Source: a virus
IMG/VR virus record: IMGVR_UViG_3300045988_108221
Span: 4,654 to 68,653 of that record
Strand: one strand, 5' to 3'
Length of the DNA stretch: 64,000 nt
Part shown: piece by piece, positions 4,201 through 30,717 of the stretch
Numbering within the stretch: the first letter of the stretch is position 1
How the letters are laid out: every line of letters begins with the position of its first letter
Notes under the pieces: generated by a model
Told to the model about the DNA's origin: nothing
What the model saw: the letters and a program-made list of their open reading frames with translations, nothing else
The model's database searches: none
Made by a program: the position numbers and the translations under genes

Positions 4201-5131
4201 TCGATGGAGCTTCAGCATCGTGTTGTCCATTGTATAAGATAACAGTACTGTCTTTTGCATCTTGCTCGCCGTTCGTGGTGAAGAAAACGTCTTTTTTATA
4301 ACATGGCAATACATCTGTTGTTTGTATTTTGTTTGGTGAGTCTTGACAGATAACAGGGTCAACAAGTTCCCATCCGTCTTTTTGTAAATCAGATAAATAT
4401 GTGTCGCCTAAGATAATTTGGTAGACTTTGCCAAAGGTATTACACGCAAGAGAATACTTGTCGTCAATCTTCGTGTTATCTTCGGTTAAGAAAATGTATG
4501 TTTCCTTACCGTTTGCCTTGAGTACTAACTTAGGGTATTTATTAAAGTCTTTATAGTCAATATCGTCTTGATAAATGGATTGTTGTGATGTAGATGGTAA
4601 TTGTACTAGACCTCTAAAGCCTTTAGACGGTGCAGAACCACCTGTAATTTGAGCGGTTGCATCTTGCCATTTATTGTTTCGGATGCCGAATATATTGACT
4701 TTCCTCGATACAGAGTTACCATCTTTAATAGGCAGTAAATATCCATTGGCAGTTGCACCGAAGAAACCATCAATTTCGCCCTCCCCAACGATAACATGCT
4801 TCAACAGTTTGCGACCGTTAACATCCATATGATGGTATGTTTGTAAACCACCAGCCTTAGACTGACCGTAAATAATTGGGATTGTACCCTCAGATGTTAC
4901 TTGGTTGTTCTTGGAGTCAAACGTAGACTCTGGTGTGCGGTTCTTTTGTTTGTCAAACAGACCACCAATGGCAGAACCGAGAGATAGACCATACATGGCT
5001 GCGGTAAATGCTTTTACACCACCAAGGAACGCCCATGGAGCACCAGCACCGAAACCAAAGGCGATAGCCGCAGCAAGTCCGAGGAACTTACCAACACGAC
5101 CTTTACCGCCTTTTCCTCCGCCTTTACCCAT
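1280..5131 (-). CDS. host-specificity / central tail fiber protein (lambda J-like)
   Basis: 1283 aa, follows the L-like gene. Gly-rich hydrophobic N-terminus, FN3-like segment (PSAPENVTIRFTKESVTISWKRV), coiled-coil and fiber-like C-terminal third. Confidence 0.8.
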   Translation of the reverse strand: MGKGGGKGGKGRVGKFLGLAAAIAFGFGAGAPWAFLGGVKAFTAAMYGLSLGSAIGGLFDKQKNRTPESTFDSKNNQVTSEGTIPIIYGQSKAGGLQTYHHMDVNGRKLLKHVIVGEGEIDGFFGATANGYLLPIKDGNSVSRKVNIFGIRNNKWQDATAQITGGSAPSKGFRGLVQLPSTSQQSIYQDDIDYKDFNKYPKLVLKANGKETYIFLTEDNTKIDDKYSLACNTFGKVYQIILGDTYLSDLQKDGWELVDPVICQDSPNKIQTTDVLPCYKKDVFFTTNGEQDAKDSTVILYNGQHDAEAPSTYKTTGGYPNIAYMVADLRYTDKMGAGNPTITAIVRGRKVYDWRTGKTEYSKNPAVCLYDYLTNDVYGAGKYITPDVLDMESFTDVANYCDEVITYNDPYGVTKSEKRYELDIILNETKSHLENMQSILNSFLGFVVFSNNKIKLRCERLETPVYAFNDDNIVENSLSYKGASIEQSPNKFNLTYVEPALDYTAVKLIVEDATNQLPPPIGIGRPVEQDIEFKGVRRQTQCLRLGKIARDIIRLCPITVTFKTGLMASHLEAGDVVTITKTYIDENGEKQTLFENQQVRIVEMKEEDGTFEISAKQYNPSIYDDAFGASLKVFAPTGDNSKEINLLPETVKPVENVSVEQVYRQKVNGIPTYDAMLVFTEPNDVNYGYSQVSVQIERNGVLGDWKVYGVSHGIMPVIGLNKNDKVHFRIIPYDSKELPHEESMVTYTHTIVPKIGNPSAPENVTIRFTKESVTISWKRVTTADIDRYEVRSSESLTENNLLLMTSEISGEIDLTRIGRSGTVWVYAVNSEEVYSAPTKYGYNLPKPTAPSVTIKSFLQSFRVNYNAIPKGCEAVVRIDGTDYRTKEPLFVYNSDGGLYNVSVAFEDYFGLGEFSPEQTVQVKATIDAEMLDREALGLTTIEDFVSTLSDKVDGIKNDVTANTTKISNTENTLRSEITQSKNGILTQVNAIDGRVTQMVQTVNGISSTVQKKIDDAKAEMSSQLTQTEKAIQLKVEENLTGDKLVSKINLSSAGTLIDGRLLHVTGQAKFDDNIITDKMLQANAVTADKIKADSLSAISANLGDVHSGTIVSSTIKNDNGTFSVDPNGNIRGANITGSTISADSIYNSGYKVKNIDYAILTVAHGQDVPTIGNYSVNECTFVPIGYNFTEKYNSNAGDYDGRKRYDVANKRKIGRCTIYLQGQQPWIYSQYGAKDLNCVVGLNNRKAVCESTWNTTTHYSNRGDRDTEWIALGVLYVLVIGKKG

Positions 5132-17790: not shown

Positions 17791-19087
17791 TATCTGTCTC
17801 TCCTTTCTCCGTAGATTTCTCTAAAGGAACATCTTGTGGGGTGGATATCACTCGTTGTTCAATTAGAGATGATTTATATTCATCGAGCAGTTGATTGCCC
17901 TTTTGAATATCAGGGAGTTCAATACCAAGAACACCATTTAGTTCTTGACGAGCTTCGTTGATTGTGATAACATTACCATCAACAAGTTTTCTAACTCGTT
18001 CAACGGCATCGGCTTGTTGAGCCTTAGTAGGAGTAAACACAAAACGGAACTCAATTTTGCCACCATAACCAAGTCTATCAACGACATATTTATTGATGGC
18101 ACGTTCAAATATTTTCGCCCATGGCTTAATTGTGTATTCCAGCATCTCGTTGTCTTTTTCCGATGATGTTGAACGGTCATTTGAGATTGCAACCCCAAGT
18201 CGTTCTGGTGGAATGTTAAAGCATGTGGCAATAATTTGTAACAACAGCTTTTGCCAATTTAGAGATGCTGACTCGTCACCAATAGGAGACACTTGTTTTG
18301 CATCTAATTGTGTTGTACCAACGATTGCTACAGCAGATTGACCTTGGATTTCACTTTCGATATACACTCGAACTTTCTCGATTTCCTCTTGAGATGCGTT
18401 TGCACCAAGATTAATCAAATACTTTGGCATCGCATTAGAAGAAATATCATTTGCATACTCTTGTACCTCAGATAGATACTTGATGTGTCGATAGGCTTGT
18501 TCTAATGGTGAATAACCAAACTCATCATAAGTCAGTTTCGTGCGTTGTAACATTGCGATTTTATCACATTTATACCACTCCTGAACACCATTGGCGTTCT
18601 GCATGTATCTTGGCTGGTTTAAATCGCCAGACCAATTTGTGACAACTTCAATCGTTTGAGCATCAATAGGGAATAAATACAAAGGTCTATCCCTTTTAAC
18701 AACCTTTTGTTCAAAGAACGCAAGGTCTAACACAATTAAATCTTCAAATAATTTGCCAATGAAGTCATGGTAATCGTCCACAGGGTTAGGTTGTTTAACA
18801 ATCTCAGTTACTTTGCGAATTGCTTTTTTATTTTCGTTATCATCAATAGAAACAACCTCCCATGGCAATGCTAGGATGCCCTCTCGAATTTGATTAATAG
18901 CACTTCTAGCAATAGGTGTTTTTGCCATGTTTCGTAACGCATCGACACTCAACTTAGTTTCCGTGTTTTTGCGTTTCTTATTACCCCAACGACCAAACCA
19001 TGTTTGTGTTACATTGGCAATAGTATCTCGTGTAACGAAAGCACTCATCCATGCGTAAATTTTTTCTCGTAGGTTCATCGTTTCCAA
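17783..19087 (-). CDS. portal protein
   Basis: 434 aa, immediately downstream of and overlapping TerL; acidic C-terminus. Confidence 0.8.
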   Translation of the reverse strand: METMNLREKIYAWMSAFVTRDTIANVTQTWFGRWGNKKRKNTETKLSVDALRNMAKTPIARSAINQIREGILALPWEVVSIDDNENKKAIRKVTEIVKQPNPVDDYHDFIGKLFEDLIVLDLAFFEQKVVKRDRPLYLFPIDAQTIEVVTNWSGDLNQPRYMQNANGVQEWYKCDKIAMLQRTKLTYDEFGYSPLEQAYRHIKYLSEVQEYANDISSNAMPKYLINLGANASQEEIEKVRVYIESEIQGQSAVAIVGTTQLDAKQVSPIGDESASLNWQKLLLQIIATCFNIPPERLGVAISNDRSTSSEKDNEMLEYTIKPWAKIFERAINKYVVDRLGYGGKIEFRFVFTPTKAQQADAVERVRKLVDGNVITINEARQELNGVLGIELPDIQKGNQLLDEYKSSLIEQRVISTPQDVPLEKSTEKGETDSE

Positions 19088-20763
19088 CCTTTCATGAATG
19101 ATAGTGTGTCCATTCGTTTCTTACGAATTGTACCCATCGCACCAACATTGATAGTCGATGAGTTTTCTAAGAATTTAGATATACACCGTTCTAAACAGTC
19201 AGGTGCATCATCGTGGTCTTTTGGAAAGTTCTTAAGTTGACTTTCGAGAACACGATGGTTTTTGTTAAACTTGATGTATCCCTGCTTTATCTTTGGTGCA
19301 AGCGAGCGTATTCTAGTACCCTTGTTGTCGCTCGCTGTACTACGAGCAGAAATCCAGTTTACATACAGACCCATATCAACGGCGGTCTGCTGTAAAGTCT
19401 TAGAGAAGAACTCTTGGAATACGTTCTCTTCGACAATAAAACCGTCTAAACGACCATTATACTTGTCGAGATACAACAGTATATCATTAATAATAATATC
19501 TGGTGACCTGCGTTCAATGTCGGCTTCTAACACATAGAAATAATTATCTACGCCACGACCGACAAATATAATCGCAGAATAATCAGATGTTCGTGATTTA
19601 CCCATAGATAAATCGACAGATGCATATATCTGTTTCATCTTAGGTAAATTCGTTTCGTCATAATAGTTAGCCTTAATCCACGACTCTTTAAACACTCGAC
19701 TCGCTTCTGTCATAGGGTTGTTTTGATACTCTGAGTTGAACGCTTCATCGTCTTGCATACGCAAAATCATGAGTTCTTGATACCAGTTATCACGAGACAA
19801 TCTCATCTTCTCTTCGTATGAACAATCCATGTGTTCAAATAAACCAAAGTTACGACCCTCCCACATTATTTTGACACCGTCCATCATTTCATCTCGATGT
19901 TCCTCAAAATAATCGGCTGCGTTCTTTGCCGCATCTGGGTCTGACAAGTCGTTAAAGATTTCTTCCCAAACAGTCCAACAAGGACTTTCGGAAAACGTGT
20001 ATACAGCTTTATATATTGAACGATTCCAGTTATTAAATTTGGAGTCGGTCAACACTTTATATAGTAATGATTCATAATGCAATACCGAACCAACATACAA
20101 AAATACAGTTCGAGGATTGCCAATCGGCATCAATACTTTCATGAACCAATCATATAATTTCTTGCGTTGGTTTTCTGTTTCTACTGCTTCGTCATTCTCA
20201 AGGTCGTCCAAGATAACAACTTCTGGTCGAATATTGTTATAACTTGAACCACGTAAAGATTGACCGCTTGACTTTGCAAACACTTGGATTTTGTTCTTTG
20301 TGACAATCTTGTCGCTTGCCCATGTCTTATCACCTTTAAGAAGACCAAAGTCTTTTTTCAAACGTTCATTATCTTCTAGTTCGTCTTTTATCGTTTGAAT
20401 GAACTCCTTGGCTTGTTCAAAGGTATCAGATATAATCAGTATGTTCTTACGATAGCCATACACGATTAACCATATAGGGAACACGACCGAGATAATACGG
20501 CTCTTACCGTGACCTCGTGGTGCCGCACGAACAAATTTGTTATGCAAGTTATCAAAGTGCAGTATCATATTTTCTGCATCCCTAAACATCGAATGATGAA
20601 AGTCGCAGAATGGAGTAGAGAATATATGGGGGAAATATGTCTTGGCGAAGTGTTCCAAGTTTGTAGCACCAATATCTTTGTCAGTTGGTGTGTTATCACT
20701 TGGCTCTGTTGTCGCTCGAGATGCCCCTAGTAGCGTGTCTAAAATATTTTCAGCCATTAACAC
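19075..20763 (-). CDS. terL: terminase large subunit
   Basis: Walker A-like APRGHGKS, Walker B-like VVILDDLEND, C-terminal nuclease-type acidic motifs; 562 aa. Confidence 0.9.
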   Translation of the reverse strand: MLMAENILDTLLGASRATTEPSDNTPTDKDIGATNLEHFAKTYFPHIFSTPFCDFHHSMFRDAENMILHFDNLHNKFVRAAPRGHGKSRIISVVFPIWLIVYGYRKNILIISDTFEQAKEFIQTIKDELEDNERLKKDFGLLKGDKTWASDKIVTKNKIQVFAKSSGQSLRGSSYNNIRPEVVILDDLENDEAVETENQRKKLYDWFMKVLMPIGNPRTVFLYVGSVLHYESLLYKVLTDSKFNNWNRSIYKAVYTFSESPCWTVWEEIFNDLSDPDAAKNAADYFEEHRDEMMDGVKIMWEGRNFGLFEHMDCSYEEKMRLSRDNWYQELMILRMQDDEAFNSEYQNNPMTEASRVFKESWIKANYYDETNLPKMKQIYASVDLSMGKSRTSDYSAIIFVGRGVDNYFYVLEADIERRSPDIIINDILLYLDKYNGRLDGFIVEENVFQEFFSKTLQQTAVDMGLYVNWISARSTASDNKGTRIRSLAPKIKQGYIKFNKNHRVLESQLKNFPKDHDDAPDCLERCISKFLENSSTINVGAMGTIRKKRMDTLSFMKGWKR

Positions 20764-20840: not shown

Positions 20841-21449
20841 TCAATTTTGTTGGATTTTTGCATAATTTGCCAATAAAATCTTATTATCTTTCATTTGTTC
20901 ACGCACTTTATTCGCCAAAGCAGGGTCTTCTTTATTGATAATATCCATAATCTCAACGATAATAGAGTTCATAGCTTGGAATGTATAAATTTTCTCTGCG
21001 ACTGTTTGCATATCCTTTAAGATAGACTGTTTTCTTGCGATATACTTCTCTTGGTCTAACATTAGGTCTTTCATACGTTTGTAGACAACATCGGCATCCG
21101 AAGAACCAGTCGCTTGTTGACATTGCAAGTCGTCTATGAACAGTTGTATCATCTCGATTTGTGTCTCAACCATATCAAGTAAGTTCTTTTGTTGGTTATA
21201 GGTGTTAACCACTTCAGTTTCTTCCGATGGTTGCATCTCTTGTACCAAGTTTGTGCGACACCAATCACCGACCATCTTAGGCGTAATCAAGATATTCTGT
21301 AGCTCGCCCTTATGTTCTTTATTTAGTTGTCGAGCGATTGCCGTATAAGATTTACCAGCGTTTCGCCAATCGGTTACATAGTCGCCAAGACCGAAAAAGT
21401 CAATGCGGTTCTCATAACCCTTTTTACGCTTTAATGCGACTTCATTCAT
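20841..21449 (-). CDS. terS: terminase small subunit (putative)
   Basis: 202 aa directly upstream of terL. N-terminal HTH-like SYTAIARQLNKEHKG, coiled-coil rest. Confidence 0.55.
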   Translation of the reverse strand: MNEVALKRKKGYENRIDFFGLGDYVTDWRNAGKSYTAIARQLNKEHKGELQNILITPKMVGDWCRTNLVQEMQPSEETEVVNTYNQQKNLLDMVETQIEMIQLFIDDLQCQQATGSSDADVVYKRMKDLMLDQEKYIARKQSILKDMQTVAEKIYTFQAMNSIIVEIMDIINKEDPALANKVREQMKDNKILLANYAKIQQN

Positions 21450-21484: not shown

Positions 21485-21513
21485 TTGACATAATATATCC
21501 TGTAATGTATCAT
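21485..21513 (+). promoter_or_regulatory. sigma70-type promoter for the recombinase cassette
   Basis: TTGACA (21485-21490), 17-nt spacer, TATCAT (21508-21513). Confidence 0.65.
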
Positions 21514-21553
21514 ATAAGTAGAAATCATGGAAACACACAGGAGGAAACATATC

Positions 21554-22084
21554 ATGGCTAATACAACAGAACCAATTAGAAATCTATCAAAAGTCCAAGA
21601 AATGAAACAAGCACTAGGGAATGACCGAGATAAAATGTTGTTCACTCTTGGCATTAACTCTGGTCTCCGCATCAGCGACCTTGTCGGTCTCACAGTCGAT
21701 GATGTTAAACCAGAGATGGAATTGTATGAACAAAAGACAGGTAAGTTCAAACGGTTTATGTTATCTAAAGAGGTCTACGCATTGTTATGCGAATACGCAA
21801 GCCGATGCAAGCATTGGTTATTTCCAAGTCGCTCTGGTGACGGACATATCTCGACCGTACAAGCGTGGAGGAAAATCAAAGCTGCATCCGTGAAATGTGG
21901 TTTAGATAACATCGGTACGCACTCGATGCGTAAAACATTTGGATACCATGCGTATCGCAAAGGTGTACCGATTGCGTACCTTATGCAAGTCTTTAATCAT
22001 TCCTCGGAAGCAATCACAATGCGATACATTGGTATCACAACAGAGGAATTAAATACTAAAGTGTATGCCATTATGGCTTTATAA
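21554..22084 (+). CDS. minimal tyrosine recombinase (catalytic domain only)
   Basis: Start at ATG 21554 behind AGGAGG. Catalytic signature present: GLRISD (Arg), KTGKFK (Lys), HSMRKT (H..R), NHSSEAITMRY (His, Tyr). Only about 25 aa precede the catalytic domain. Confidence 0.8.
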   Translation: MANTTEPIRNLSKVQEMKQALGNDRDKMLFTLGINSGLRISDLVGLTVDDVKPEMELYEQKTGKFKRFMLSKEVYALLCEYASRCKHWLFPSRSGDGHISTVQAWRKIKAASVKCGLDNIGTHSMRKTFGYHAYRKGVPIAYLMQVFNHSSEAITMRYIGITTEELNTKVYAIMAL

Positions 22085-22354: not shown

Positions 22355-22371
22355 TCACAAAGTCTTTTAAA

Positions 22372-22422
22372 GGGCATACATAGGTTTATATCTTAGGATA
22401 TATTCTTATGTATGCCCTTTTT
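22372..22422 (+). terminator. terminator of the plus-strand cassette
   Basis: 11-bp stem GGGCATACATA / TATGTATGCCC (22372-22382 / 22407-22417) followed by TTTTT. The 24-nt loop carries an operator-like box. Confidence 0.65.
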
Positions 22423-22722
22423 GTGTTTCTTGGGTTACATCTGTATGTTTCATTTGTAGTCTCACACGTATGTTAACAGGTTTGGTCTCAAACACAATAT
22501 CTGACTATAAGGCAAACACGTTAGTGTTTATTGTCGAAGACAATCTTATAGGTTTAATACTTATGTATTCTTTAGAGTATTCCTTATAGATTGCTTCGCA
22601 ATATTCCTTACGGAATGTCTTTCAAGTCGGTTTCTTAAGTTTGGGGTAAAACCTTTTTCAAAAGCTGTTTCTTAAAACTCTTTCAAGAACGCACTTGCTT
22701 TCAAACCATAAGTTAAAACTCT

Positions 22723-22757
22723 CTCTACTTATAGGGTAAAACATTTGATTTTTGTAA
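22723..22757 (-). promoter_or_regulatory. 35-bp late-promoter-like element, copy R2
   Basis: Minus-strand TTACAAAAATCAAATGTTTTACCCTATAAGTAGAG. Points toward terS through the antisense strand of the recombinase cassette. Confidence 0.5.
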
Positions 22758-22939
22758 CACTTTTTTCTTAAAATTGGATAAATATTTTATTTTACATGGT
22801 AAAATTTACCCCTCAAAAATGCCACTCAGCTCAGTAAATATCTGTGTTTCAAGACTTGAAAAAATTTTTTCCAGTTTATGAGTAAAAAATGCCCCATAAG
22901 TCTTAAATCTATAAAATGCGATACAGGATTTTTAACTCG

Positions 22940-23234
22940 CATGGTACTAGGCTGGTGTCACACTCCTATGGTAGTGCTTGGGTTGGACGGCATCTGACCC
23001 ACATGGGATAAAATCGAACGAATGTACGTTGGTAAACACAACCATAGTATCGTGATGAATTTTCACAAGCACAACACTAGGGTCGTGATTTTGGATGGAA
23101 AATAGTTTGGCTGCGGCCTGTAGTTAGTCTGACTAAAAATAAAGCAATCACCATCCTATGATGGTGATTAACTATGTTGAAAAATATTGTCCAAACGATA
23201 CACAGTCCTAGTATTGCATCTCCCTAGTACCATG
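22940..23234. repeat. 12-bp perfect inverted repeat CATGGTACTAGG flanking a 271-bp segment
   Basis: CATGGTACTAGG at 22940-22951 and its reverse complement at 23223-23234. Part of a TACTAGG motif family (22945, 23207 inverted, 23223 inverted, 23257, 23293, 23744). Confidence 0.7.
23134..23169 (-). terminator. hairpin plus T-run in ORF-free DNA
   Basis: 10-bp stem AATCACCATC / GATGGTGATT (23146-23155 / 23160-23169), followed on the minus strand by GCTTTATTTTT. Confidence 0.45.
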
Positions 23235-23718
23235 TCACAAACTTATAATAACGCTATACTAGGAAAACATACATCAAAAAACATAATCATCATACTAGGG
23301 TTTACATATTATAGAAAATCATAAGTTACCTTGTATGCAACCCTAAAAATTTCTACAAAAATTTTAAACGATTGTATATTCGATAGACAACTCAAATTGG
23401 AAAATACGATTGTTCCATATGATGTTTCATATCTTAGACAATCTATTGAAACGATTGTTTTATCGATAGTATTTGCGATTGTTTTCTACATATGTTATGT
23501 GTTTAAATGTATGAAACCATAGATAAAACATGGGTTTGTAGACCATTGTATGGTGTGTTTTGTATATAGCCATTGTTTGTACTGGGGTATGTTTCTTATG
23601 TGTGGACTTAGGTATGCTCTTGGGTTTGTTATGATTATACCGCCCCCAGCTGAGAATGGTTCTCCCTTTTGGATATTGAAAATTTTCGATACGCTTAGGG
23701 GTGTCTCATTGGTTCATA

Positions 23719-23732
23719 TGAACATATGTTCA
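23719..23732. promoter_or_regulatory. 14-bp perfect palindrome TGAACATATGTTCA (GAAC-N4-GTTC core)
   Basis: Read directly; flanked by further CATATG half-sites (23715-23740). Confidence 0.6.
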
Positions 23733-24377
23733 CATATGCACCATACTAGGGTTAGTCAATCAATCGAATAGTATCAATGTAATAGAATATCTAATTGCTT
23801 ACATTCATTATCACTTGTATTCTCAATATGTAGATGTCATATATTGAAAACTATCGATATATATGTTTGTACATAGAGTATTCGTTCATGTATCAACTAA
23901 CGGTTTACAGTTGGGTAACATATGAGTAGATACTCATGTATGCACTATATGCATTATACCTATGATTTTAAGTAATGTTTAATATTGGTCTTGGCTGGCG
24001 GTGGTTGTAAAATTGTATTTTACACAATGTTTTTTATTTGGGTACATCAATAAGGGTTCAAAATTCTGTAGTATCACTCGCCTAAGTCAATGCCATTGTA
24101 CACCCTACGTACACTACCAAAGTACAACCACATCACAATACAATACGTTTATACATCTGTTACATACATGAGTAATACATATGTATAAAACAAATAAAAA
24201 TACAACGATATACAACGATTGTATATAACAGATATATTTACCGTTGTATGCTCATTTGTATTCGTTGCATATGTTTATATTCGAACGAGATTAAACGCAC
24301 CGTATAACTCAAATAAATCAATCGTTTATTCTCATTTAGTCGTGCGTATTGATAACGCCTGCGTTATGTGTAGCATA

Positions 24378-24391
24378 TGAACATACGTTCA
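24378..24391. promoter_or_regulatory. palindrome TGAACATACGTTCA (GAAC-N4-GTTC core)
   Basis: Read directly; one mismatch from the 23719 copy. Confidence 0.55.
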
Positions 24392-24440
24392 TATGTTATG
24401 TTTGTATGAATGGTTGTTTATATATTGAATATAAATATAA

Positions 24441-24465
24441 GCGGTACAGAAATGATCTGTACCGC
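24441..24465 (-). terminator. GCGGTAC-stem hairpin after gene 24476..24736
   Basis: 10-bp stem GCGGTACAGA / TCTGTACCGC with a 5-nt loop. The downstream T-run on the minus strand is weak. Confidence 0.45.
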
Positions 24466-24475
24466 TTGTTATTGT

Positions 24476-24736
24476 TTACATATAACATTCAACAAGACTT
24501 TGCACGGTATCTTTATTTACAGTATCAAGGCTATCCAAATATGTGCTATTTGTATGTATAGCTATTAACTTATTTTTATAGCCTTTTTTACTAATAATTT
24601 TAAATCTAATTAAATAGTTCCATCCTTCCATATCGTTAAAATATAGGAATTTTACTGATGTACATTTAATGTTATCAATTAAATGTAGATTTCTTTGTAA
24701 AAAGTCAAATAATGCATTATATGTATATGTTTTCAT
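24476..24736 (-). CDS. hypothetical protein (AT-rich cassette)
   Basis: Start moved to ATG 24736 (MKTYTYNALFDF..) behind AAGGGG; 86 aa. Confidence 0.5.
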   Translation of the reverse strand: MKTYTYNALFDFLQRNLHLIDNIKCTSVKFLYFNDMEGWNYLIRFKIISKKGYKNKLIAIHTNSTYLDSLDTVNKDTVQSLVECYM

Positions 24737-24753
24737 TTTAATAACCCCTTTTC

Positions 24754-24945
24754 TTAACATTCCCAATAATCAACAATATCATTATGGGCAGTAATTAAAT
24801 CAATCATGTGAAAATATAAATATTCTTTTGAACATTCCCATAACTCATTAGAATTATTATTAATAGTTGCCACATCATGAGCGTGATTTATTGCATAATC
24901 GATGTACACCATGGATATATACGTTATGAGACTGCCAAAATACAT
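24754..24945 (-). CDS. hypothetical protein (AT-rich cassette)
   Basis: 63-aa ORF; no convincing SD seen. Confidence 0.3.
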   Translation of the reverse strand: MYFGSLITYISMVYIDYAINHAHDVATINNNSNELWECSKEYLYFHMIDLITAHNDIVDYWEC

Positions 24946-24972
24946 ATGGTCTAAAAACGCTATATTTGCTTT

Positions 24973-25176
24973 CTAAGGCGTTTTATATGTTTTACATACA
25001 ATCATAAGCGAATGTTTTTACACGCACCCTATAGCGTAAAATAACGAATGTTTTATTGAGAAATGTTCTCAAAATATATGGATGCCTACGCTGGTGTTCT
25101 CATTTAGGATTTCTAATTGAGAATTGCTGCTTAAGGTGTACACGCAAGAAAAAGCGGTATCTATAAGGATACCGCC
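24973..25176. repeat. non-coding repeat module, copy A
   Basis: Aligns block by block with 28637-28810: TACAATCATAA, ATAACG, TTATTGAGAA, ACGCTGG, TTCTCATTT, TCTAATTGAGAAT, then a GGCGGTAT-stem hairpin. Confidence 0.65.
25146..25176 (-). terminator. rho-independent terminator after gene 25184..25495
   Basis: GCGGTATC / GATACCGC stem (25154-25161 / 25168-25175), followed on the minus strand by TTTTTC. Confidence 0.7.
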
Positions 25177-25183
25177 GTATAAA

Positions 25184-25495
25184 CTATAATTCATTTAGAG
25201 TGTTTTTGTAAACCGTGTATAATTCATGTTCAAGGAACGGCAACCATCTCCATTTATCCGCTTTGTCTAAAATCCTTTCATTGATAAACACAATTTCAGA
25301 TATAACATAAGCACGATAATTCATAGTATTTTCGTGTTCCTCTTTTACCCTACTAGGGTTATAACCGTAACACTCGGCATCTCGTAAGAAATTTAATAAT
25401 TTACCTTTATCTTTTGTAGGCTTGCCACTTGTAGCATAATTAGATACTACGTTCAATATAGCTTTTTTCGTGTATTCGTTTTTGATAGTAAACAT
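25184..25495 (-). CDS. hypothetical protein (AT-rich cassette)
   Basis: 103-aa ORF with a terminator directly downstream. Confidence 0.5.
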   Translation of the reverse strand: MFTIKNEYTKKAILNVVSNYATSGKPTKDKGKLLNFLRDAECYGYNPSRVKEEHENTMNYRAYVISEIVFINERILDKADKWRWLPFLEHELYTVYKNTLNEL

Positions 25496-25525
25496 TATTA
25501 TATTACCTCTTTTTATTCCTTTCGT

Positions 25526-25915
25526 TTATACGATATAACTACTTGCAACGGCGAGCCGTTCGCCGTCAATCATAATCTGAACACCTTTATATAAGTTAAT
25601 AGGTAGTAAATATCTTTGATGTGTATAACTATAAATATGCTCGTTTTCATAAATCAAAAATTGCCCTTGATTATTCTGTAATTTAACTTTATATAAATCA
25701 AACTTGATATAATACCGCCGTAAAACACGATTATTTTTATCAAGTAAGATATAAAACTCTTTGCCTTCGCTATCACATGGATAATAAGTGATAGCGTTAT
25801 CTATTTTATATAGTGTACCATTGTTATATAATCGGTTGCGTTTTTCTATTGTGATAGGTTTAAACTCTACCCACTTTAAACCATAATACACTTTTATGTT
25901 TTCTACTGTTTTCAT
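25526..25915 (-). CDS. hypothetical protein (AT-rich cassette)
   Basis: 129 aa; GGAGGG SD. Confidence 0.55.
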   Translation of the reverse strand: MKTVENIKVYYGLKWVEFKPITIEKRNRLYNNGTLYKIDNAITYYPCDSEGKEFYILLDKNNRVLRRYYIKFDLYKVKLQNNQGQFLIYENEHIYSYTHQRYLLPINLYKGVQIMIDGERLAVASSYIV

Positions 25916-25997
25916 GTGTTCCCTCCGATGTGATCACTTATGATTATATTCCACGGTTAAACACAAACGGTATAACCGTGGTTAAAAAATTCTTATG

Positions 25998-26066
25998 TTA
26001 TAATGTTTGATTGTTTTTCGTGCGTTGAATAAACACGATAATTAAACTTAATAAAACTAAAGCCAT
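25998..26066 (-). CDS. possible 22-aa hydrophobic peptide
   Basis: AAAGGGGA SD, then MALVLLSLIIVFIQRTKNNQTL. Below the ORF-track cutoff. Confidence 0.3.
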   Translation of the reverse strand: MALVLLSLIIVFIQRTKNNQTL

Positions 26067-26098
26067 ATAAATATGTTCCCCTTTCGATTGATAAGCAA

Positions 26099-26401
26099 CT
26101 ATAGATATAACTCATCAAGATAATATAGCAAATCAAGATATCTATTGAGAGACTTTATAAAGTCATTCAAATTGTTGTATTCCTTATGTGTTCCCTTAAC
26201 AGTAATAAAACAATAATTATTACCTTGCACAAATATATGTATATCGTAGTCATGATATAATAACGTATGTATTTTATCGTATTCTACATAGCTATAAAAC
26301 ATATAACTTTCTGCATATGTGATAATTTCATAATCTTTTGACATATCAAATATAAATGCATTTAGGTTTATAATCTTATGTATATTATCTTTTGTTTTCA
26401 T
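26099..26401 (-). CDS. hypothetical protein (AT-rich cassette)
   Basis: 100 aa; AGGGGTG SD. Confidence 0.55.
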   Translation of the reverse strand: MKTKDNIHKIINLNAFIFDMSKDYEIITYAESYMFYSYVEYDKIHTLLYHDYDIHIFVQGNNYCFITVKGTHKEYNNLNDFIKSLNRYLDLLYYLDELYL

Positions 26402-26411
26402 ATTTTCACCC

Positions 26412-26771
26412 CTAACAATAAACTACAAATGGACTATACATATCTGTGTATGCAACACATGATTCACAACAAATATTTCTAAATGTTTTTTCATAGTCAA
26501 TCGATATCCAATACGGTAAATCACCATATAAACCACTTTCATAAAAATATAAGTCTATATAATTATAAATATCTGTATAATACCAACAATCACCATTTTT
26601 AATATATTCGCTTGACTCGTCAATATTCAAATCTTGACTTAAAATGTCAAGCATATCCATTTCATATTCTGAAAATTCGTTGATACACTCAAGAAAATCA
26701 TGCAATCCATCAAGTGTTCCTAACTCGTTTTTATATTGTCGTGCATATTGTAACAATGTTATAAATTCCAT
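26412..26771 (-). CDS. ArdA-like antirestriction protein (C-terminal domains only)
   Basis: YNYIDLYFYESGLYGDLPYWISIDYEKTFRN parallels the Tn916 ArdA segment YDVARYYIEETGALGEVPASLQNYIDYQAYGRD (from memory). Acidic; lacks the ArdA N-terminal domain. Confidence 0.4.
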   Translation of the reverse strand: MEFITLLQYARQYKNELGTLDGLHDFLECINEFSEYEMDMLDILSQDLNIDESSEYIKNGDCWYYTDIYNYIDLYFYESGLYGDLPYWISIDYEKTFRNICCESCVAYTDMYSPFVVYC

Positions 26772-26782
26772 GTTGTACCTCT

Positions 26783-27367
26783 TTAACCGTTAATTTCTGT
26801 AATAAGTCCGATATCTTCACCGTCAATAGTAAAATAGTATTGACTACAATAATTTATTAATTCCTTTGTATCTAATAAGTCATTATGGTTATTATGATAA
26901 TGTTCTATAATTAATTCTATATCTTTATCAAAATCATAAAAACTTTGTTGTAATTTTCTCCATTCGTTCGCAAGTTGTAAACATTCGCTATCAGATAATA
27001 AAAGATAATTCTCTAACTTAAAGCCGTTAACATCAAATATTTGATATTTTACGTTTTCGCCGTTTATGTCTGCATTAGGTAAAACAAAACGAATAAGCAA
27101 TGATAATTTTTTATTATCGTTTATAAACATTTCTAAAGCATCACCATAATAGCTATATTTATAAAGACATTGATAATGAGTAGTAATATTATATTCTTTT
27201 TCTTGTACATTAGATAATAATATCATATCAATAAGTTCGTCAATCATTCCATTATGAATGATATTATCAAGCATATTTTTCTTTATTTTATTTTGTACAT
27301 CAATAGATAATTCATTATATTCATATATATTAATTGTCTTTGTTTCTGTTTTTGTAATTGTTTTCAT
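26783..27367 (-). CDS. hypothetical protein (AT-rich cassette)
   Basis: Start moved to ATG 27367 (MKTITKTETKTINIYEYNELS..) behind AAGAGG; 194 aa. Confidence 0.5.
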   Translation of the reverse strand: MKTITKTETKTINIYEYNELSIDVQNKIKKNMLDNIIHNGMIDELIDMILLSNVQEKEYNITTHYQCLYKYSYYGDALEMFINDNKKLSLLIRFVLPNADINGENVKYQIFDVNGFKLENYLLLSDSECLQLANEWRKLQQSFYDFDKDIELIIEHYHNNHNDLLDTKELINYCSQYYFTIDGEDIGLITEING

Positions 27368-27368
27368 T

Positions 27369-27635
27369 TTAACCTCTTTCAATAATCATATATAATTCTT
27401 CATTATTTACTTTTTCAATGTGTAACGGCGAAAATTTTCGAATAAATCTATTTAAGTATTTAGATGTGGTATGAGAATATTTTTCTCTATCTTGATACAT
27501 TACATCATTTTTACTATCATATACGGCAATCAAAGTATTATAACTTTGAAAAGCTGTTAGATTTAAACAGATATTAATAATAAATTGATTGGGAACCGTG
27601 TTACCCTTACTACTTAACATATTTTGTACTAACAT
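27369..27635 (-). CDS. conserved phage/plasmid protein of unknown function
   Basis: The pattern NQFII....FQSYNTLIA....YSHTTSKYLNRFI recalls a widespread unnamed phage/plasmid family (memory only). Confidence 0.5.
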   Translation of the reverse strand: MLVQNMLSSKGNTVPNQFIINICLNLTAFQSYNTLIAVYDSKNDVMYQDREKYSHTTSKYLNRFIRKFSPLHIEKVNNEELYMIIERG

Positions 27636-27748
27636 AATTTTTGCCCTTTCATTCGTTCCAATACGGTATATACTCTATTCATACCGTACACCATAGCCAC
27701 AGTAAACACCATAGCCAAAACATTTTTTAAAATCATAGATAATTCCAT
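27629..27748 (-). CDS. possible 39-aa membrane peptide
   Basis: MELSMILKNVLAMVFTVAMVYGMNRVYTVLERMKGQKLC. Stop overlaps the next start (ATGTTAG). First ORF after promoter 27900-27928. Confidence 0.35.
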   Translation of the reverse strand: MELSMILKNVLAMVFTVAMVYGMNRVYTVLERMKGQKLC

Positions 27749-27899
27749 AGGCTACACCCTTTCGATTAAATATATAACCTTTTCTATGGTCTTATTGTAC
27801 CGCTTAGTAGGTGCAATGTACAATAGTTTTTATCTATGGTTGCCATAGTTTTAAGCTATGGCGGTACACCATTGAATACCGCTATACAATAGATATATA

Positions 27900-27928
27900 T
27901 AAATACCACAAAAACACGAATTTGTCAA
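27900..27928 (-). promoter_or_regulatory. sigma70-type promoter for cassette 27748->25184
   Basis: Minus-strand TTGACA (27928-27923), 17-nt spacer ending in TGG, then TATTTA. Confidence 0.55.
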
Positions 27929-28259
27929 ATTTTAGCAAAAACCAAGCGTAAATGAGAATGTCTCTCAATAAAACGTTTAAATATTTGCGTTCTAAGGTCT
28001 GTCTAAAGTCTCCGCCTTATGATTGTATGCAAAAAGTCAAAAACGCCGTACAACGCAAATAAATCAATTCTAGAGGTATTGTCTAAATGAGAATGACGGT
28101 GGTATCTTTTGTATGCATACATAAGTTATGAATTTGTTTGTCTACAATAGACACCGTTGTATATCGAATGTTTTCTATATGTTATTAACAAATATAATCA
28201 TTATTGACTAATAGCTAAAATTTTCGATATGGTTTACGCAGGCGGTGGTCGTGCAATAT

Positions 28260-28457
28260 GGTTGTATGCAATCGAATTTCACGCAACGGTTTTTCATCTG
28301 AATATATGTTCATATGTTCACACATCGGTTATATGAATAAGTTTTCATATGAACATACATTCATTTGAAAACATATGAATATATGCTCATGTATTCATTT
28401 ATTGAACACATGAAAGTATGTTCAATTATTCATATGTTATAATCGGTTGTATGCAAT
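28260..28457. repeat. CATATG-palindrome array bracketed by 13-bp direct repeats
   Basis: GGTTGTATGCAAT at 28260-28272 and 28445-28457. Between them are 4 CATATG sites (28311, 28346, 28372, 28431) inside TTCATATGAA / GAACATA..TTC-type palindromes. Confidence 0.7.
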
Positions 28458-28636
28458 TTAATTGTGGTATCTCGCAGGATTTACCGTATTGAGAATATTT
28501 CTCATTTAAGCTGCGGTATATTGTGATGTCTTCTATAGGCGTACACATTCATATGTTTTGTACATAAAAACAAACAAACGCAAAAACACGCAAAAAGTCA
28601 TATATCATAAAATCGTGTATTTTCGCTTGTATGCTC

Positions 28637-28810
28637 GTTTAGGTGTTTTATGTACAATCATAAACGGAACATCTGAAAACTGCCGTATAACTCAAATAAC
28701 GCAACTTTTATTTGAGAACAATTATCAAATACGCTGGCTTTTCTCATTTGTAGTATCTAATTGAGAATACGATGGTAAAACAAAAGGCGGTATACCTTAA
28801 GTATACCGCC
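28637..28810. repeat. non-coding repeat module, copy B
   Basis: Paralog of 24973-25176 (see that entry). Confidence 0.65.
28777..28810 (-). terminator. rho-independent terminator
   Basis: 10-bp stem GGCGGTATAC / GTATACCGCC (28786-28795 / 28801-28810), followed on the minus strand by TTTTGTTTT. Confidence 0.75.
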
Positions 28811-28816
28811 AATGGT

Positions 28817-28918
28817 TTATAGGTCTTCTAGTCCCTCTTCTAAGTCTTTTTTATAATCTTCATCTACGTTATCAAGTAGCGCCTTAATATATTCTTGTTC
28901 AACGATAAAATAAAACAT
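28817..28918 (-). CDS. possible 33-aa acidic peptide
   Basis: MFYFIVEQEYIKALLDNVDEDYKKDLEEGLEDL, with GGAGGA 10 nt upstream and a terminator directly downstream. Confidence 0.35.
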   Translation of the reverse strand: MFYFIVEQEYIKALLDNVDEDYKKDLEEGLEDL

Positions 28919-28987
28919 AAGTTGATCATCCTCCGTTATTATTAAGTGCTTAAAGCGTTGGCGGTACATAAGTACCGCCGTTAGTGT

Positions 28988-29281
28988 TTATCTGAGTGGC
29001 TTTTCATCGTGTAGTATGATTTTGGCAACTCGCCAATTATATTGGCTTAAGTTTACCATGTATTCACTACCGCTTTTTGTACTACCGATTAGGCTTGAAT
29101 GTTTTTCGCCATCAAAATAATCACAAATTGTGGTGGTTTGATAGATACGCTCATTCAATGGATACACTTTAGACCAATTAGATTTACTATATTCAATCTC
29201 AATCAAATAAGGCTTTTTTAATAAATATCTGTGTTCCTCTAGGTAGTCAACTAATTTTGATAAACTAGAAAATTCTTTCAT
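28988..29281 (-). CDS. hypothetical protein (AT-rich cassette)
   Basis: Start moved to ATG 29281 (MKEFSSLSKLVDYLEE..) behind GAAAGGGG; 97 aa. Confidence 0.55.
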   Translation of the reverse strand: MKEFSSLSKLVDYLEEHRYLLKKPYLIEIEYSKSNWSKVYPLNERIYQTTTICDYFDGEKHSSLIGSTKSGSEYMVNLSQYNWRVAKIILHDEKPLR

Positions 29282-29486
29282 GAGTTTTACCCCTTTCAAT
29301 ATAAAATTATAAAAGACCTACGAAAGACATTTATCATCTTTCGTTACACTCATTATACACCTAGAGGGGCAATCTGCATAATAGAAAAAATCTATGGATA
29401 GTCATAACTTTAAGCTATGGCGGATAACCGCACTCCGCAGGATTTATCCATACAATTCTATTGTGTACAACTGAATTTTACGCCGT

Positions 29487-29600
29487 CATATGAATATGTG
29501 CTCATATGTTCATGTATCGTTACATGAATGTCTGTTCATATGAACAACTGTTCAGATGACAACACATGAACGAATGTTCATATGTTCAAACGCTCATATG
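29487..29600. repeat. second CATATG-palindrome array
   Basis: 5 CATATG sites in 114 bp (29487, 29503, 29537, 29579, 29595). GAAC-N4-GTTC cores at 29542-29553 and 29568-29579. Flanks resemble those of the 28260-28457 array (CAATCGAATT..). Confidence 0.7.
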
Positions 29601-29785
29601 ATTGAATACAATCGAATTGCATGAGACTATATCGAAAGTTTTCACGCTTTAATCATCTAAAGTATTCGAACTGATTGAAAAAATTCGATTAGTTGCAGGA
29701 TTTTCGATATACTGCACATCGAAAATTTTCGACCTTTAGTATACTAAAGTTTTCGATTAGATGGAAAATTTTGAATATATTAAAG

Positions 29786-29799
29786 TGAACAAATGTTCG
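29786..29799. promoter_or_regulatory. palindrome TGAACAAATGTTCG (GAAC-N4-GTTC core)
   Basis: Read directly. Confidence 0.5.
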
Positions 29800-29859
29800 C
29801 TGGTTGCAGGCGGTCTCGCAGGTCGTGGCGAGCACATGGGCGGTCAATATGTAATGCCT

Positions 29860-30400
29860 TGAAAAAACACACATATGTATTAATATATGAGCGTATATAT
29901 GTATAAAAATAGGGGTGAGATATATATGTATATATACATATATAAAATACCGTGGACATATACATATAAATATATACAAATGTAAAAATCCGTGGACAAT
30001 ATCATATATATAAACAATAAAAACCACCGCAGAATTGATTTAAATCGTTTATACGGTGTGTTTATATCCACGGTGGTATATTTGTATACCACATATGTGA
30101 AAACCACCGTACAATGCAAATAAATGAATTTCATGAGATGATGTGGTCGTATGAACATATGTTCAATCATGGGTATTGCCACGTGGTATCATGGAAGATT
30201 AAAAACAAACAAATGTTCGGTTGTTTTTCTCTTAGGCAGCATCCGTGGTTCGTCAATAGAATACCCCATGAACACACCATAATACACACCAATAGATAAA
30301 CACATATATCATCGACACATATATACGTTTGTTTAATACCACGATATATATAAATAAAAAAATACCACCGCATAAAACGTGGACACATAACGAACGTATA
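29860..30400. repeat. AT-rich (ATATAC/TATATA) block with short iterons; origin-like
   Basis: CCGTGGACA at 29950 and 29990, ACGTGGACA at 30377. ACCACCGY at 30023, 30103, 30364 and inverted at 30070. TATATA/ATATAC runs between them. Confidence 0.5.
30152..30165. promoter_or_regulatory. second perfect copy of TGAACATATGTTCA
   Basis: Identical to 23719-23732. Confidence 0.6.
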
Positions 30401-30608
30401 ATGTATAAGCAATATATGCTGCGGATGCACGATTGTTTCATGCAGGTGTTCGCCATGATTTTTATGCTGTGGTATTTATAATAGACAACAGGTAGTACAC
30501 GCATAAATGTTAGCTGTATTTAAAATGGTGGTATGATTACCTGTGTGCTGTGTTTGGGATGCATCACACAATGTTGGTGTATACATGCACTCATCTGTTG
30601 TCATTTAT

Positions 30609-30638
30609 AGAATAACACAAGACGGTTTGTGTTGTCAA
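30609..30638 (-). promoter_or_regulatory. sigma70-type promoter firing into the ORF-free island
   Basis: Minus-strand TTGACA (30638-30633), 18-nt spacer, TATTCT. Preceded by an A-tract-rich stretch (30650-30710). Confidence 0.45.
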
Positions 30639-30717
30639 TAACCAATGTGTTTTTCTTGGGTTTTATTTTTTGAAATCTTGTTTTTTATTTTTTGGTTTTT
30701 AATTTTTTGGATTTAGG

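Follow-up and report, generated by a model that had tools for sequence, protein, structure and literature searches.

In Firmicutes, the LexA operator is the Cheo box, CGAACRNRYGTTYC, and some phages, such as GIL01, are LexA-controlled. In other phages, a master repressor acts on operators that are dispersed genome-wide, as for the C1 operators of P1, the gp71 'stoperators' of mycobacteriophage L5, and MrpR/SPBRE of SPbeta, where the repressor gene is known. Contiguous short repeats upstream of promoters, each binding one dimer in a cooperative manner, make up the heptad arrays of the ribbon-helix-helix (RHH) protein Omega of pSM19035 and the ParR/parC iterons. Operators of the ArsR/SmtB family are 12-2-12 repeats with a TGAACA-NN-TGTTCA core, e.g., AATACCTGAACA-GA-TGTTCAAGTATT, which are found near the start site as a single copy or a pair and show cooperative binding (PMC8790569). 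The TetR-family protein RolR of Corynebacterium glutamicum recognizes a 29-bp operator in which TGAAC-N4-GTTCA is overlapped by TTCAT-N2-ATGAA, and which is bound by a pair of homodimers (PMC9210681). Here we describe a family of short boxes with the core GAAC-N4-GTTC in a 64,000-nucleotide stretch of viral DNA (the window; positions 4,654 to 68,653 of IMG/VR record IMGVR_UViG_3300045988_108221), which represents most of a ~68-kb siphovirus-like phage genome. The boxes had been likened to LexA operators in an initial annotation; the feature is real, but its interpretation is revised here, to a variant of the dispersed phage operators that recurs upstream of terminase genes in unrelated phages. 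Our preferred explanation, to which we assign a probability of about 0.55, sees in the boxes the operator arrays of a dimeric repressor, which would gate promoters in repeated modules of a hypervariable cassette island.

The window contains eight GAAC-N4-GTTC cores, against 0.66 ± 0.77 expected (maximum 3) in 100 dinucleotide shuffles, a comparison that the initial annotation had put forward as a check. All of its coordinates were correct: the perfect 14-bp palindrome TGAACATATGTTCA is present twice (23719–23732 and 30152–30165, with cores at 23720 and 30153), further cores start at 24379, 29542, 29568, and 29787, and the half-degenerate copies at 28307 and 28350/28351 exist, as members of a 5–7-site array at 28299–28424. 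These six cores lie within 22355–30717; the remaining two (6967 and 11442) fall in the tape-measure gene and have A, G, or T flanks. The stricter form TGAAY-N4-RTTCA has eight matches, all in the island. With a symmetric position weight matrix (PWM), 15 sites scored at least 14 bits, six of them with the exact GAAC-N4-GTTC core, and the top score elsewhere in the 64 kb was 12.1 bits. The boxes occupy three tracts (22355–24475, 27752–28816, and 29300–30717) that separate two blocks of small minus-strand genes. These tracts are truly non-coding, because their plus-strand open reading frames (ORFs) carry stops in related phages (e.g., 23550–23771, in 21 of 25 loci), unlike the cassette genes, which are conserved as proteins. 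All 15 strong sites fall within 4.6 kb of this DNA. The original observation is confirmed.

The conserved unit exceeds the Cheo box, reading CATA-TGAAY-N4-RTTCA-TATG with a CATATG extension on both sides, and window sites show the form CATA-TGAACA-TA-TGTTCA-TATG. When GAAY-N4-RTTC cores are counted without PWM bias, using the islands of both the window and 26 related loci, the base 5′ of the core proves to be T in 43 of 50 half-sites, with C in 3, A in 3, and G in 1; this T-flanked type is written CATATGAAC. The first perfect box (23719–23732) is flanked by CATA and CATATG and lies ~85 nt upstream, in the minus direction, of a universally conserved −10 block. Two more boxes are TGAACATACGTTCA at 24378–24391, over a predicted transcription start, and TGAACAAATGTTCG at 29786–29799, while AGAGTATTCGTTCA at 23875–23888 is decayed (10 bits). 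The two half-sites of a box drift independently, with 88 pair-breaking and 6 compensatory changes (5.7 expected), and perfect palindromes make up just 10 of the 67 distinct sites. It follows that the palindromes are not preserved as hairpins, and the pattern is the one expected of a dimeric protein. Selection for a hairpin or cruciform was accordingly discarded, as compensatory covariation is absent.

Comparison with 31 related IMG/VR contigs shows a mosaic island in which cassettes are shuffled. Clades whose TerL is at least 89% identical keep the box family; its copies are always found upstream of TerL and hardly ever in structural genes. GAAC itself often drifts to GAGC, GTAC, GCAC, or GAAT, and the half-site spectrum across relatives is TGAAC 55, TGAAT 25, TGAGC 10, TGTAC 7, and others (including TGCAC). 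In the clade-wide logo, the AA of GAAC holds 0.36–0.48 bits, compared with 1.35–1.42 bits for the outer TG/CA. Within clade I, variation is greatest in the N4 spacer (identity 0.66–0.79, vs. 0.80–0.89 for half-sites). The motif is common to clades I and III, and the copies in clade II are all degenerate; a switch of motif from clade to clade, considered as evidence of co-evolution, was on these grounds not clear-cut, and only the distant prophage L032 has different repeats.

The sites cluster in two arrays of five to seven sites each. In array A (28299–28424), sites start at 28299, 28307, 28334 (weak), 28350, 28376, 28384 (weak), and 28411, on an 8/26/35-bp lattice; in array B (29491–29596), they start at 29491, 29499, 29525, 29541, 29567, 29575, and 29583. 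Each site is one frame of a lattice built from CAnnTG hexamers and intervening AA or TT (CAnnTG-WW repeats), and half-sites therefore return at 8-bp intervals, with their orientation either alternating or unchanged. Neighboring sites in the family stand at sharply quantized distances of 8 bp (35 cases), 16 bp (7), and 27 bp (12), followed by 35 and 43 bp; in unrelated loci the distances are 16 bp (19) and 8 bp (10). The tandem 16-bp pair at 29525/29541 in array B matches the pattern of other phages and of cellular operators. Like the Omega and ParR repeats, the arrays consist of short repeats, direct or inverted, with a fixed short period, but this period is 8 bp rather than 7 or 10–11 bp, and no RHH protein was identified in the phage. 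With the dispersed operators of P1, L5, and SPbeta they share the many copies of one short intergenic motif between transcription units, where occlusion or roadblocking is possible. However, the sites of this phage are confined to an 8-kb island, are palindromic and lattice-clustered, and have no recognizable repressor gene.

The same arrangement is found in other phages. A search of 2.9 million viral contigs for the tandem unit TGAAY-N4-RTTCA-TA-TGAAY-N4-RTTCA retrieved 19 stretches, against about one or fewer by chance in our own estimate, which correspond to ~11 independent phage lineages with GC contents of 0.33–0.65. In 6 of the ~11 lineages, covering three TerL families, the unit lies 0.16–2.7 kb upstream of TerS or TerL. 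In a GC-rich lineage, boxes stand just upstream of a TTGGAA-N16-TATAAT promoter, read by eye, that faces TerS. An all-against-all BLAST revealed no protein family common to the box-bearing phage lineages. In one lineage (L046/L047), two canonical CGAAC-N4-GTTCG boxes and two T-flanked TGAAT-N4-GTTCA boxes adjoin each other near a bidirectional terminator; this juxtaposition implies that the two box types differ in specificity. The CGAAC boxes of L046 (~130–160) come just before the T-flanked pair (193–222), and those of L047 (~780–810) just after it (738–767). This lineage comprises ~165-kb phages with GC 0.39–0.40, partly from the same dataset as the relatives of the window, and also the metagenome loci L086 and L114.

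In cellular DNA, a metagenome-wide scan found at least 119 loci with the tandem unit, typically right after TTGACA-N17-TAnnnT. Among the matches listed, the gene directly behind the unit encodes an ArsR/SmtB-family protein of one of several subfamilies in 39 of 119 loci and a TetR-family protein in 23 of 119, with the start codon inside the tandem unit in the TetR cases. A regulator gene thus adjoins the operator in 62 of these 119 cellular loci vs. 0 of the ~11 phage lineages, and the phage sites are orphans, i.e., operator copies without an adjoining regulator gene. The cellular loci and the literature agree, and the motif is therefore a common operator type of winged-helix/helix-turn-helix (HTH) repressors, the core of which coincides with the Cheo core. 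Judged by sequence and geometry, the phage sites belong to the TGAACA-N2-TGTTCA class (ArsR/SmtB '12-2-12', RolR-like TetR), and not to the CGAAC-type Cheo box. Window sites carry the TGAACA-NN-TGTTCA (6-2-6) core of the 12-2-12 repeats, and ArsR-linked cellular sites were retrieved with the phage pattern. They resemble operators of the SmtB, ZiaR, AztR/AzuR, and CzrA type in this core (TGAACA-NN-TGTTCA being the same as TGAAC-N4-GTTCA), in their T/A flanks, and in their AT-rich outer arms. They differ in that no cognate gene was found in the phage genome or beside the boxes of the ~11 phage lineages, in having arrays of 5–7 overlapping sites rather than one or two copies, and in lacking a link to metal-resistance genes. 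Overlapping palindromes of the RolR type are likewise present in the window (TGAATGTCTGTTCATATGAACAACTGTTCA, 29525–29554), and the RolR operator shows the same interleaved lattice as GTTCATATGAAC of arrays A and B; a TetR-family gene was not found in the phage, however, and the phage arrays are longer.

These comparisons bear directly on the proposal that the Cheo-type LexA of the host binds the boxes, so that island promoters are tied to the SOS response or LexA is titrated by the phage. Six sites do have the exact GAAC-N4-GTTC core with an AT-rich spacer, both TGAACATATGTTCA sites match the Bacillus optimum CGAACATATGTTCG except at their outermost positions, the host is probably a Firmicute of the Negativicutes, and some boxes overlap promoter spacers or start sites, as in LexA-controlled phages. 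However, the C/G flanks of CGAAC...GTTCG are rare (C in 3 of 50 half-sites), and the CATATG extension, the 8/16-bp lattices, and the 5–7-site arrays are unlike LexA, whose sites are single or paired. Relatives swap GAAC for GAGC, GTAC, or GCAC, leaving little information in the AA, and the temperate Veillonella relative, in which SOS coupling would be most sensible, has no boxes. The gene content of the phage is of a virulent type, and profile searches found no integrase-type lysogeny module, repressor, or anti-repressor in it; SOS logic of the GIL01 kind is not apparent. Finally, the L046/L047 lineage holds true CGAAC-N4-GTTCG pairs beside its T-flanked pairs, and the same tandem unit is an operator of cellular ArsR/SmtB and TetR regulators. 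LexA binding is thus improbable, and the LexA/Cheo-box label is not supported, given the flanks, the extension, the lattices, the core drift, and the temperate relative without boxes. Three readings had been offered at the outset, namely SOS coupling, titration of LexA, and a phage repressor with LexA-like specificity. What survives is the idea of operators controlling the island cassettes, the third reading, a repressor with GAAC-N4-GTTC-like specificity, being close to the evidence; the assignment to LexA does not. Because ArsR/SmtB and some TetR operators share the core, a GAAC-N4-GTTC match by itself is insufficient to name a LexA site.

Two of the box locations are, as far as sequence can tell, operator positions of sigma-70-type promoters. 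At 24349–24391 (plus strand), TTGATA (24349–24354) is followed by a 16-nt spacer, TAGCAT (24371–24376), and the box TGAACATACGTTCA, a layout that is also that of cellular ArsR/TetR promoters. As this box directly follows TAGCAT, it would cover the transcription start. At the position of the decayed 23875 box, clade I relatives have a perfect TGAACAwrTGTTCA inside the spacer of a conserved TTGACA-N16-TATGTA promoter facing TerS. The host appears to use sigma-70-type promoters, since the recombinase gene next to the island carries a canonical TTGACA-N17-TATCAT (21485–21513).

The arrays are embedded in repeated modules. Regulatory module A (28180–28520) comprises, in order, TAAAATTTTCGA, TTGTATGCAA (28262–28271), array A, TTGTATGCAA again (28447–28456), CGCAGGATTTACC, and TTGAGAAtatTTCTCA, and is kept in relatives. 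Regulatory module B (29400–29800), with TTTTCGA iterons at 29701–29760 and the box at 29786–29799, is a second copy that precedes, in the minus direction, the cassette at 29299–28817. The window thus has two module copies, one ahead of each cassette in the direction of transcription; the relative L028, which lacks the cassette between arrays A and B, has a single module copy with a single array. Across relatives, the conserved composition is a TCGAAAATTTTCGA-type palindrome, two TTGTATRCAA palindromes with the array between them, CGCAGGATTTAYC, and the palindrome TTGAGAA-N3-TTCTCA. These other families occur in the islands only: the TCGAAAATTTTCGA-type palindromes and iterons at 23676–23691, 28211–28229, and 29701–29760; TTGTATRCAA at 28262–28271, 28447–28456, 29461–29470, and 29600–29609; and TTGAGAA-N3..-TTCTCAA at 25060–25085, 28487–28512, and 28741–28768. 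The islands are apparently packed densely with protein-binding sites of several specificities.

The cassettes themselves are all on the minus strand. Block 1 (24476–27751) has eight small genes with strong Shine-Dalgarno sites and is mosaic among relatives, and cassette 2 (28817–29299) has two small genes. An 88-aa PF26096 protein encoded in block 1 (27369–27635, minus), with invariant NQFI, QSY, and TTSKY motifs, has more than 100 relatives, mostly on 63–72-kb contigs of this phage family, and in relatives its gene is always 0.5–1.5 kb downstream of an array. Terminators of the cassettes share the stem GGCGGTAY...RTACCGCC (24441–24466, 25153–25176, 28786–28810, and 28959–28980), and it seems that cassettes move as units together with their promoter modules and terminators.

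In the mechanism that we propose, a dimeric sequence-specific protein would read two TGAAY half-sites per box. The lattice could accommodate a single dimer or two dimers at a distance of 16 bp, and arrays A and B could take up a cooperative oligomer. Each accessory cassette is preceded by a module combining promoters and three other palindrome families with the array, and single boxes head the route to the packaging operon. Occupancy may occlude or roadblock the promoters that boxes overlap, such as TTGATA-N16-TAGCAT with the box at 24378 and TTGACA-box-TATGTA at the 23875 position, and it would thereby gate transcription of the island and of the genes downstream.

Several observations weigh against this explanation. 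No LexA, S24, cI, XRE, ArsR, or TetR regulator was found in the phage, using Pfam, PHROGs, and NCBIfam for the window ORFs and reading of ORFs for the 3.8 kb outside it; the lack of a lexA or cI-like gene had already been remarked for the window, and it extends to these 3.8 kb. The best-conserved cassette protein, the 88-aa PF26096 protein, has a predicted beta-rich, non-HTH fold (predicted local distance difference test, pLDDT, 91) with no significant match in the PDB. Sites that overlap at 8 bp cannot all be filled simultaneously. Half-sites are no better kept than the surrounding non-coding DNA (0.81), so that selection on them is not demonstrated. Promoters were called solely by their match to the consensus, and the region shows no enrichment of sigma-70-like sites (58 found, 65 expected); promoter assignments therefore rest on individual conserved cases. 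Arrays A and B are also 190–690 nt upstream of the cassette start codons, which is too distant for simple occlusion of cassette promoters.

The background-level conservation of half-sites would fit boxes without a dedicated function, as decaying copies of a module that spread by duplication together with cassettes and resembles operators incidentally. The many degenerate copies, including one orthologous box decayed in the window itself, and the uniformly degenerate versions of clade II are consistent with this. Nevertheless, the unit recurs in ~11 unrelated lineages with GC 0.33–0.65, and an AT-rich 30-mer cannot persist by drift in GC-rich genomes. The strict quantization of spacing, the near-invariant T flank, and promoter-relative positions identical to those of cellular operators also make an absence of function most improbable. 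ArgR (ARG box TGAAT-N4-ATTCA), parS, and IHF sites were further candidates, set aside for mismatches in spacing or half-site.

As to the binder, the phage encodes no recognizable ArsR/SmtB or TetR member. A hidden Markov model (HMM) built from the 39 box-adjacent ArsR-like proteins gave no credible match in the window, its relatives, or other phage loci, its sole match (E 0.025) being a frame across the box array of L028 itself. An HMM from the 23 box-adjacent TetR proteins had no match at E<10 in any phage frame. A cryptic regulator among the plus-strand island ORFs was ruled out, since these are not conserved as coding sequence, and the PF26096 protein was rejected in the same role, having a confident predicted fold without DNA-binding features. 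The only recognizable site-specific DNA-binding proteins in the genome are TerS, two methylases, and a 185-aa tyrosine recombinase, the last of which is a candidate for an alternative binder of the boxes.

The binder could be a phage-encoded protein of a kind not recognized by these searches, a tentative choice put at somewhat under even odds and favored by the motif switch in the relative L032, the size of the arrays, and the general habit of phages. L032, a temperate Veillonella prophage, has the orthologous recombinase (54% identity), but boxes are absent from it; at the same place, a 1.2-kb non-coding tract beside the recombinase (6930–8160 of L032) carries CTATAGAT at least 12 times and GGGTATAT 7 times. 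Such different repeat families suggest phage-specific binders. Conversely, a host one-component repressor of the ArsR/SmtB or TetR type is favored by the sequence identity with cellular operators, which includes GC-rich phages, and by the orphan status of the phage sites; we regard it as possible but rather doubtful. In a wider and unlikely form of this proposal, several unrelated phages, this one included, would carry orphan host-repressor operators that head both the packaging/late operon and hypervariable cassettes. The operators would belong to an ArsR/SmtB metal sensor or, with lower likelihood, to LexA, and a host stress or metal sensor would gate phage expression or be titrated by phage DNA as it replicates, with no phage regulator involved.

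If the sites are indeed orphan operators, either a new small family of phage DNA-binding proteins is hidden among uncharacterized genes, or it is routine for phages to rely on a sensor-repressor of the host (for metals, small molecules, or SOS); a sensor borrowed in this way would time phage late genes and accessory cassettes. Hypervariable small genes like those of the cassettes are of a kind that often encodes counter-defense, and their switch matters for the biology of phages in the human mouth and gut. The tandem unit upstream of terminase genes in six unrelated lineages provides a concrete, testable handle.

The 185-aa tyrosine recombinase (21527–22084, plus strand) merits separate consideration. 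The protein has a catalytic domain and no other, and its R-K-H-R-H-Y set is complete. The gene, which adjoins the island and diverges from TerS, lies on the strand opposite to almost all other genes and is conserved in every relative, including the Veillonella prophage. The boxes could be its recombination sites, used in a shufflon- or integron-like manner to add, delete, and shuffle cassettes. The 22-bp unit can formally be parsed as 8-bp inverted arms around a 6-bp crossover, CATATGAA-CATACG-TTCATATG (24374–24395), although palindromic 6-bp spacers, copies overlapping at 8 bp, and independent half-site drift are atypical of core sites. The protein is catalytically complete and, besides TerS and the methylases, the only recognizable site-specific DNA-binder; the diverged L032 recombinase goes with different repeats, and a homologous recombinase accompanies boxes in one other lineage, although only there (L038/L093), most other box-bearing lineages showing no such recombinase near their boxes. 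The island is mosaic, and L028 lacks the cassette that arrays A and B enclose, but homologous exchange between repeated modules would account just as well for the junctions of cassette insertions and deletions. Among the 31 relatives compared, no inversion of a gene-bearing segment was seen, and cassette genes keep one orientation. Many contigs break within the island, several 42–117 nt from a box, as would be expected at any multi-copy inverted repeat. With the same sequence serving as a bona fide cellular operator, recombination sites are a very improbable explanation.

Proximity to the terminase genes raises another alternative, in which the boxes are packaging sites, bound by TerS through a winged HTH in a cos/pac region, or marks of genome ends. 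Tandem boxes precede TerS/TerL at 0.16–2.7 kb in 6 of the ~11 lineages, across three TerL families, TerS candidates have N-terminal HTH motifs, and in L034, L049, and L053 the boxes lie 0–41 nt from the contig end, followed by TerL. However, the region upstream of terS also holds late-operon promoters, and the TerS proteins of these lineages are unrelated, yet the sites are the same. In the window there is no unique site but at least six box locations over 6.5 kb, up to 9.4 kb from terS, and contig ends of relatives fall at different boxes. We therefore consider a role in packaging very doubtful, and repressor operators remain the preferred explanation. As regards the contig ends themselves, many contigs of the family (L001–L029) end inside the island, several of them 42–117 nt from a box, and the three unrelated contigs L034, L049, and L053 start 0–41 nt from their box pair. 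The likely cause is that assembly broke off at inverted repeats present in several copies; alternatively, the ends may be true DNA ends or reflect structural heterogeneity.

Nearly every gene in the window is on the minus strand, including those for tail, tape-measure, portal, TerL (19075–20763), and TerS, with replication genes further right. Downstream of the island, the packaging/late operon opens with the gene for the putative small terminase TerS (20841–21449, minus), which has a weak HTH at its N-terminus. ThyX, dUTPase, dNMP kinase, Dcm-like and CcrM-like methylases, RusA, DnaB, and primase are also encoded, and the gene content looks like that of a virulent phage. ORF translations in the 3.8 kb of genome outside the window correspond to a tail-fiber end, lysis proteins, and a DnaE-type polymerase. 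Close phage relatives of the window were not found in GenBank. A 232-kb Veillonella sp. contig carries a TerL with 64% identity to that of the phage, which, together with the 38% GC content and the strong Shine-Dalgarno sites, makes Veillonella or a related Negativicute the likely host. A literature search returned nothing directly relevant on Veillonella LexA, Veillonella phages, or the exact box motif. One ORF within 31000–60000 matches a Thoeris anti-defense Tad2-like domain (E 1.3e-4), and the CcrM-like methyltransferase is of the GANTC type; the Tad2-like ORF and the Dcm-like and CcrM-like methyltransferases point to counter-defense functions outside the island as well.

Other elements of the islands concern RNA. 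ARAGORN called a tRNA-Lys (UUU, with encoded CCA) at 27797–27871 (plus strand), which was rejected, having no Rfam match even at E<=1; over the window, Rfam, at the gathering cut-off and at E<=1, returned only tRNAs elsewhere and chance miRNA-like hairpins over array A. This element belongs to the repeated module, with a second partial copy at 29395–29460, and in L028 its 'acceptor' pairs locally to form a simple hairpin. It is probably not a tRNA.

A non-coding block at 23612–23692 (minus), ATCGAAAATTTTCAATA-TCCAAAAGGGAGAACCATTCTCAnCTGGGGGCGGTATAAT, is conserved in every relative and has a perfect −10 element with a GAGAA-N3-TTCTC palindrome at the −35 position. Some relatives have the symmetric variant GATAA-N3-TTATC, and in L011/L012 the palindrome is replaced by the box-like GTACATATGTTC. 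The block could be a late promoter with an activator or repressor site or, given the GC-rich GGGGGCGG, a cos-like element. From the conserved −10 (23639–23634) to an intrinsic terminator (23170–23145) there is no ORF (23140–23630, minus), which suggests a non-coding transcript of ~470 nt; it would include ACAATCG iterons (23363–23481) and has no Rfam match. On the plus strand, the promoter and box at 24349–24391 face a bidirectional terminator (24437–24469), so that only an RNA of ~90 nt without an ORF (24383–24480) would be made, possibly a small regulatory RNA.

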